DNA of 427 nucleotides, taken from the NCBI RefSeq assembly GCF_003334765.1, contig NZ_QOWT01000125.1, one strand, 5' to 3'. The position numbers and the translations under genes were made by a program. Source of the stretch: Escherichia coli (lineage in GTDB: Bacteria; Pseudomonadota; Gammaproteobacteria; Enterobacterales; Enterobacteriaceae). Below the pieces are notes generated by a model. The model had not been told where the DNA came from. It was given only the letters and a program-made list of their open reading frames with translations, and ran no database searches. Shown one piece after another: positions 1 through 427 of this stretch (its first letter is position 1; every line of letters starts with the position of its first letter).

Positions 1-427
1 ACTGCGGGCGTAAACACGCATAAAGGCAGCATTTTTTCTTTAGGGCTGCTATGTGCGGCAATTGGCCGTTTGCTTCAGCTCAACCAGCCGGTAACGCCAA
101 CAACCGTATGTTCTACGGCGGCAAGTTTCTGCCGTGGCCTGACCGATCGTGAACTGCGTACCAATAATTCACAACTGACGGCAGGTCAACGGTTGTACCA
201 GCAGCTAGGCCTTACCGGCGCACGCGGTGAAGCCGAAGCGGGTTATCCACTGGTGATCAACCACGCCTTGCCGCATTACCTCACTCTGCTGGATCAGGGA
301 TTAGATCCTGAACTGGCATTGCTCGATACCTTGCTCCTACTGATGGCTACCAACGGCGATACCAACGTTGCATCGCGCGGTGGCGAGGGGGGCCTGCGCT
401 GGCTACAGCGCGAGGCGCAAACATTAT
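1..427 (+). CDS. citG: Internal fragment (5' and 3' partial) of triphosphoribosyl-dephospho-CoA synthase CitG, which makes the precursor of the citrate lyase acyl-carrier-protein prosthetic group. Reading frame 1; the last base (427) is the first base of an incomplete codon.
   Basis: Seen in sequence: frame 1 is open for 142 codons with no stop, while + frames 2 and 3 have stops at 11-13 (taa) and 21-23 (taa); minus-strand frames traced from the 3' end are broken by stops within about 50 codons. The translation carries motifs I recall as typical of the CitG/MdcB family: NTHKG (nt 13-27), [11 protein letters not shown] (nt 217-249) and the glycine-rich [15 protein letters not shown] (nt 349-393). 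From memory, the whole peptide matches the middle of E. coli CitG; I could not verify this by search. Neither the start nor the stop codon is in the window. Confidence 0.9.

Follow-up and report, generated by a model that had tools for sequence, protein, structure and literature searches.

The window, the whole stretch of 427 nucleotides that we analysed, is an internal fragment of citG, the gene encoding triphosphoribosyl-dephospho-CoA synthase. Frame +1 on the plus strand is open through all 142 codons (positions 1..427), and the ORFs in the remaining frames and on the antisense strand reach at most 33 aa each. The exact sequence is found, with 100% identity, at NZ_CP007592.1 4982538-4982964 of Escherichia coli O157:H16 strain Santai, where it is annotated as citG. 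The full ORF around it (NZ_CP007592.1 4982223-4983110) consists of 295 codons, and the window comprises codons 106-247. The original prediction had named the gene as citG, and the family models confirm this identity. The protein scores 641.1 bits against the NCBIfam equivalog NF007503 (cut-off 477) and 361.8 bits against TIGR03125 (cut-off 272.3). Likewise, its linkage is that of CitG: citC-D-E-F-X-G are contiguous in this copy, and citX overlaps citG by 26 nt. CitG converts ATP and 3'-dephospho-CoA into 2'-(5''-triphosphoribosyl)-3'-dephospho-CoA. The prosthetic group of citrate lyase is made from this product, and CitG is required only in catalytic amounts. In an Rfam scan of the window at E ≤ 1, a single chance-level match was obtained, and a search for direct and inverted repeats in the window found none.

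We compared the window by megablast with 5,426 complete E. coli genomes. It matches annotated citG in 5,422 of them; 24 match at 99% identity or more and another 5,394 at 95-99%. All ten genomes with 100% identity among the matches listed carry two matching cit places. In Santai, the core locus (rna-citT-citG-citX-citF-citE-citD-citC) is located at 0.98 Mb of the same genome. Three core alleles were aligned with the window, those of K-12, Santai and TUM13754, and each differs from it at 10 of 427 positions. The core arrangement, present in K-12, places citT directly downstream of citG and dpiBA/citAB divergently upstream of citC. The copy containing the window does not have this arrangement. 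Judged from these matches, the window belongs to a second, island-borne paralogous allele of citG, outside the core citCDEFXGT operon. In principle, the window could also stem from a core allele outside the sample with the same sequence as the island copy.

The island copy and K-12 citG (b0613) belong to the same family and share the gene order citC-D-E-F-X-G and the 26-nt overlap of citX and citG. At the nucleotide level, 96.2% of the whole gene and 97.7% of the window are identical. However, the K-12 gene adjoins citT and dpiBA, whereas the copy on the IS-flanked island is followed by acnB and preceded by genes for an MFS transporter, a lactonase and a GntR regulator. The C-terminus also differs, ending in …AQI in K-12 and in …ASLTGR in the island protein. 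Between both genes there are 21 synonymous and 3 non-synonymous differences, of which the window holds 9 and 1. These proportions indicate that the CitG protein is under purifying selection. The intact ORF, together with the 21:3 ratio, is compatible with a functional protein.

The island operon extends over L001:7310-18196 (NZ_CP007592.1 4974847-4985733), and the window is L001:15001-15427. It begins with a divergent GntR gene, followed by a LigI-like lactonase (Amidohydro_2), the MFS transporter, citCDEFXG and acnB. The junctions are very tight, citC starting 5 nt after the MFS gene and acnB 25 nt after citG. A promoter and terminator scan of the operon gave counts at or below the shuffled expectation and is uninformative on operon structure. 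The neighbours are ISEc38, IS66, IS3, Mu-transposase remnants, YagK/YfjJ, Hha, Ag43 and a GTPase. Of the 5,426 complete genomes, 33 (<1%) carry the 3.2-kb segment specific to the island (GntR, amidohydrolase and MFS), always on the chromosome and with at least 99.6% identity. The positive strains come from humans, poultry, mink, dog, gull and water, and the flanks of the island are identical in Santai and GTEN_97. From its mobility-gene flanks and sporadic distribution, the locus appears to be a horizontally mobile, IS-flanked island. The original prediction had assigned the gene to the anaerobic citrate-fermentation operon. This assignment fails, because an exact match was obtained for the island copy alone, which lies between citX and an acnB paralogue. 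A 427-nt window resembling a gene of a core housekeeping operon can therefore be a rare island-borne paralogue.

The Santai record opens (L012:1-1107) inside a truncated tyrosine integrase adjoining a tRNA-Phe gene, which is pheU by its K-12-like flanks dicD/yjdC, dsbD and cutA. The cit island lies about 120 kb from this integrase, at the opposite end of the circular record. At least 120 kb of accessory DNA at the end of the Santai record, the cit island included, may be linked to pheU. The coordinates of the island in other genomes suggest pheV. In the E. coli genome set, we also observed cit matches on plasmids (2-4 places) and acnB matches on plasmids (3 places). About 12 genomes present a second cit place without the island-specific segment, pointing to further routes of cit duplication.

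The leucine codon CTA occurs four times in the 142 codons of the window, always in frame on the plus strand, as the original prediction had counted. The positions are 49..51, 205..207, 337..339 and 403..405. Other low-usage codons are in frame as well. CGG (Arg) at 190..192 is shared with the core alleles, and its single occurrence is about the background rate. GGA (Gly) at 298..300 is found in the island allele only, the core alleles having GGG. TTA (Leu) is located at 40..42, 301..303 and 424..426, and the Santai core allele has GTA (Val) at the second of these places.

Four synonymous sites are private to the island copy and serve as markers of this allele in the window: 108, 150, 207 and 300 (4767, 4809, 4866 and 4959 in cluster coordinates). 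At 108 the island codon is GTA and the core codon GTT; at 150 they are CGT and CGC. The other two sites give rarer codons, with CTT>CTA at 205-207 and GGG>GGA at 298-300. The private CTT>CTA change also turns the CTTGG of the core alleles into CTAGG, which produces CTAG at 205-208. Of all tetranucleotides, CTAG is avoided most in E. coli, and CTAGG belongs to the contexts of Vsr very-short-patch repair.

We estimated the frequency of CTA against a background of about 62,000 codons, drawn from 190-196 long ORFs in five E. coli K-12 regions (230 kb in total, heuristic ORF calls). CTA is rare in this sample, as had been claimed, with 3.85 per 1000 codons and 3.65% of the Leu codons. The window reaches 28 per 1000. 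Its 28 Leu codons consist of 10 CTG, 5 TTG, 4 CTA, 4 CTC, 3 TTA and 2 CTT. The excess has a nominal binomial P of 2e-3 per codon and 1.8e-2 per Leu codon, and P is about 0.02 when eight candidate rare codons are allowed for. The full island citG has 6 CTA in 295 codons (20.3 per 1000, 12% of its Leu codons), five times the background density. This excess is also nominally significant (P about 1e-3 per codon and 9e-3 per Leu codon). K-12 core citG has 5 CTA, or 17.1 per 1000; relative to it, the island copy has an additional CTA inside the window and another two further downstream. Four or more CTA are present in 0.42% of the 142-codon background windows, which fall within 5 of the 196 genes, and only 2.5% of the background genes match the CTA density of island citG. 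The CTA excess is thus real but modest, and it is not rare at genome scale, with roughly 100 genes per genome being comparable.

The other low-usage codons, which the original prediction had listed correctly by position, are uninformative. The seven other classical rare codons amount to 14 per 1000 in the window versus 28 per 1000 in the background. No general rare-codon enrichment was found in the window: 29% of background windows have a combined count at least as high as its 6. AGA, AGG, ATA, CGA and CCC are absent from it. The three TTA codons (21 per 1000 versus 13 per 1000 in the background) are unremarkable. Finally, all 6 CTA of island citG lie beyond codon 120, and this C-terminal skew is not significant given the positions of the Leu codons (P = 0.14).

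Rare-codon usage in weakly expressed E. coli genes is captured by the codon adaptation index (CAI) concept of Sharp and Li. For the w values we took 30 genes of K-12 (ribosomal-protein genes, tufA and fusA; 4,894 codons), which gave w = 0.002 for CTA. The full island citG has a CAI of 0.318. It corresponds to the 13th percentile of 196 K-12 ORFs, whose median is 0.401, so the gene is low in adaptation and not near the median. The local CAI of the window is 0.346 (19th percentile), and that of K-12 core citG is 0.325, low as well. In the same island operon, citX shows 0.32 (14th percentile), citC and citD about 0.43 (60th-65th percentile), and citE and citF 0.57 (90th percentile). None of these five genes has a CTA in a total of 1,444 codons. 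Low adaptation is therefore limited to the accessory genes citG and citX, and CTA is limited to citG within the operon. The accessory genes are far less adapted than the structural genes of the same operon. As side information, the sharp CAI contrast within one operon is seen both at L001:10342-14711 and at L002:12485-16857.

These values modify the meaning of the codons. They had been taken as the sign of a weakly expressed, conditionally induced gene, as expected for the citrate-fermentation operon. For citG itself, a low CAI and a fivefold CTA density agree with weak expression. Nevertheless, with citE and citF at the 90th percentile and no CTA anywhere else in citC-X, they are not the mark of a weakly expressed operon. 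The codon usage of citG has no foreign signature (GC 0.55, GC3 0.56). As an accessory gene of low CAI with codons that highly expressed genes avoid, citG resembles weakly expressed E. coli genes; the difference is that only CTA is enriched in the window.

The CTA sites were then considered among alleles and orthologues. The core alleles of K-12 and Santai have CTA at 49, 337 and 403 and CTT at 205. CTT at 205 is present in all three core alleles examined, and the CTA at this site is found in the island allele only. TUM13754, the core allele closest to the island copy, has CTG at 49. The number of CTA per E. coli citG allele goes from 3 to 6 (3 in the Santai and TUM13754 cores, 5 in K-12 and 6 in the island copy). 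Among 36 Enterobacterales citG orthologues, one genome per species, we found no positional conservation of the four sites, which vary within Escherichia too. They are mostly CTG in this set, Citrobacter, Salmonella and Edwardsiella included, and E. albertii has ATA, CTT, CTG and CTC. The sites at 337 and 403 are CTA in the E. coli core alleles too; the first is CTG in Citrobacter, Salmonella and E. albertii, and the second is variable in other genera (CTA, TTA, ATA, CTG or ATG). The orthologues have 0-6 CTA each, with a median of about 2, and the median CTA share of Leu codons is about 4.5%, near background. Since the sites are conserved neither across genera nor among E. coli alleles, no specific translational function is implied. 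In Citrobacter amalonaticus S646 (L023:~6480-7880), the citG frame stays open for 466 codons when extended upstream, which is either a citX-citG fusion or an artefact of ORF extension.

Taken together, we consider it probable that the CTA excess is a by-product of weak synonymous-codon selection in a low-abundance accessory gene, and that the window is the island-borne citG copy. Three of the four CTA codons in the window would have been inherited from the E. coli core citG lineage, and the fourth (205-207) would be the private CTT>CTA change. With CitG needed only catalytically, its synonymous sites would drift under weak codon selection. The low expression of CitG, the role of drift and an origin by gene conversion are our inferences. 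Some observations fit this explanation less well. CTA is enriched and the other rare codons are not, which a general loss of selection on codons would not predict; citX combines the same low CAI with zero CTA; and the 13th CAI percentile is low, not extreme.

Part of the CTA excess may be plain sampling noise. That noise explains all of it, with a CTA count unrelated to expression level or selection, is unlikely. The small fraction of background windows with such counts is nonetheless spread over 5 of 196 genes, the other rare codons are below background, citX has no CTA at the same low CAI, and the E. coli alleles differ by up to three codons. Against these points, the full-gene excess remains at P of about 1e-3 per codon and 9e-3 per Leu codon, and citG falls in the low part of the CAI distribution, where weak selection would be expected to tolerate such codons.

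It is very unlikely that the CTA codons form a selected cluster, which would slow or gate CitG translation (for example through the minor tRNA-Leu(UAG)) and so tune its level or folding. The fivefold density, exclusive to citG within the operon, and the placement of all 6 CTA after codon 120 would agree with such a cluster. However, the placement has no significance once the Leu positions are considered. The sites are also unconserved in Citrobacter, Salmonella, Edwardsiella and E. albertii and polymorphic in E. coli, and the orthologues have a CTA share near background.

We regard as highly improbable that the window stems from the core copy of citG in the anaerobic citCDEFXGT operon, with a CTA richness due to the weak conditional expression of the whole operon. 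The gene is citG, with 97.7% identity to core alleles, and the K-12 core gene likewise combines 5 CTA with a low CAI. Yet the exact sequence was found only in the island copy, the three core alleles each differ at 10 positions, and the neighbours are the acnB paralogue and the MFS transporter, not citT and dpiBA. The adaptation of citE and citF and the absence of CTA outside citG argue against the expression part as well.

The chance that the CTA richness is a compositional footprint of a foreign origin of citG itself is negligible, and we rejected this cause: the copy does lie on a mobile island beside compositionally foreign GntR, amidohydrolase and MFS genes, but its cit segment shares 98-99% identity with E. 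coli core alleles, its GC and GC3 are ordinary, core alleles also have three of the four CTA, and the citG of a related Enterobacter module has only 1 CTA.

The GntR, amidohydrolase and MFS genes are foreign-looking, with 45% GC and a CAI in the 4th-9th percentile. In contrast, citC-G and acnB of the island have E. coli-like composition and codon usage. An Enterobacter sp. module shows the same order, with GntR, then amidohydrolase-MFS-citCDEFXG, and then a 5' remnant of acnB. The remnant is located at L009:~9090-9240 (a Logan ERR10431730 contig) and is also present in L008. It implies that the ancestral module already ended in acnB. Between the island and this module, the amino acid identity is 92% for MFS, 85% for GntR, 75% for the amidohydrolase and 77% for CitG.

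In a five-way alignment, the island-private sites cluster in the first ~35 nt of citC, the last ~45 nt of citG and the citG-acnB spacer. These mosaic ends (L001:10342-10376 and L001:15530-15620) are Enterobacter-module-like and lie outside the window. The interior 5.1 kb of the cit cluster has only about 20 private sites and is 98-99% core-type. Compared with core cit loci across the species, the island cit segment has 97.8-99.0% identity, the best core match being 99.0%. The island acnB (L001:15599-18196) is 96.3-97.5% identical to all E. coli core acnB genes, slightly outside the diversity of those sampled, so an older or sister lineage of Escherichia may have been the donor. The gene opens with ATG TTA AAA, as does the Enterobacter remnant, and K-12 has GTG CTA GAA.

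From these ends and interior, the cit genes of the incoming module appear to have been overwritten by E. coli chromosomal alleles via homologous recombination, and its acnB was probably overwritten likewise. A recent gene conversion from the host's own core copy was rejected, as the two cit clusters of Santai, island and core, share only 98.0% identity. Because the cit genes would have recombined with chromosomal alleles, the window has no foreign codon signature although the locus is mobile. Native-looking codon usage is compatible with a mobile locus and does not exclude it, because recombination with a resident copy can erase the foreign signature. The original prediction had taken the codons as no sign of recent horizontal acquisition. 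This stands for the codons, with a GC3 of 0.56 and three of four CTA shared with the K-12 core, and it does not stand for the locus, which is mobile and present in 33 of 5,426 genomes.

The codon finding is ordinary. The island operon is an incidental point of some interest. A citrate lyase cluster as accessory DNA in part of a species has a known counterpart, the 13-kb citrate-fermentation region of Klebsiella pneumoniae, which is present in about half of the isolates and is linked to anaerobic growth on citrate (PMC2735749). The Klebsiella region differs in being the sole citrate lyase cluster of its host and in carrying citS-oadGAB-citAB. In E. coli, by comparison, the island supplies a duplicate cluster to strains that keep their core operon intact, and its cit genes are associated with those for a LigI-like lactonase, an MFS transporter and AcnB; at 33 of 5,426 genomes it is also much less frequent.

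The module order of the E. coli island recurs in Enterobacter sp. and K. oxytoca, which carry GntR-Amidohydro_2-transporter-citrate lyase modules. However, the cit genes of these modules are of host or module type, with CitG at 77% and 61% amino acid identity, while those of the island are 98-99% core-type. The K. oxytoca module (L010/L011) also differs in its CitMHS transporter and its additional genes: the unit is joined to citCDEFG-oadGAB and lies beside AcnB, two further aconitases (AcnA-like), PrpF and an Iso_dh protein. In E. fergusonii (L096) the unit has a CitMHS transporter and lies near a lactonase-CitMHS-aconitase-PrpF set. Both neighbourhoods are larger and apparently tricarboxylate-centred. 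In Pseudomonas and Paraburkholderia, the regulator-transporter-amidohydrolase unit occurs without citrate lyase.

The island amidohydrolase, which lies outside the window, belongs to Amidohydro_2 (Pfam PF04909, E = 1e-43). Its nearest solved structures are 2ffi and 4i6k, putative 2-pyrone-4,6-dicarboxylate hydrolases, and it matches LigI (4d8l) with E = 4e-24. Against the 4-sulfomuconolactone hydrolase equivalog it scores 137 bits (cut-off 500), and it is below any equivalog cut-off. It is a relative of the LigI and 4-sulfomuconolactone hydrolase lactonases. Nevertheless, its context on the island is tricarboxylate metabolism and not aromatic catabolism.

The gene content and the conserved neighbourhoods in Enterobacter, K. 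oxytoca, E. fergusonii, Pseudomonas and Paraburkholderia suggest that the substrate is a lactone of a tricarboxylic acid. Its ring-opened product would enter metabolism via aconitase and, in facultative anaerobes, citrate lyase. The route would consist of lactone opening, isomerisation to citrate by AcnB and cleavage by citrate lyase. Our best guess at the substrate is isocitrate lactone. We propose only tentatively that this accessory operon lets a minority of E. coli ferment a tricarboxylic-acid lactone, and that its cit genes and acnB were overwritten by host alleles via gene conversion; we give this proposal less than even chances. If true, such a route for plant-derived tricarboxylate lactones would add a small, new element to the strain-specific gut metabolism of E. 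coli. A literature search on the island, on the pairing of citrate lyase and lactonase, and on isocitrate or hydroxycitrate lactone catabolism found nothing relevant.

Further along the same island, at L001:20110-27526, the annotated genes are agaR, an aldolase fragment, a UxaA pseudogene, malX, a MalY/PatB-family gene and an enterotoxin gene. Judged from these annotated names, the island may have gathered native-like metabolic genes more than once.
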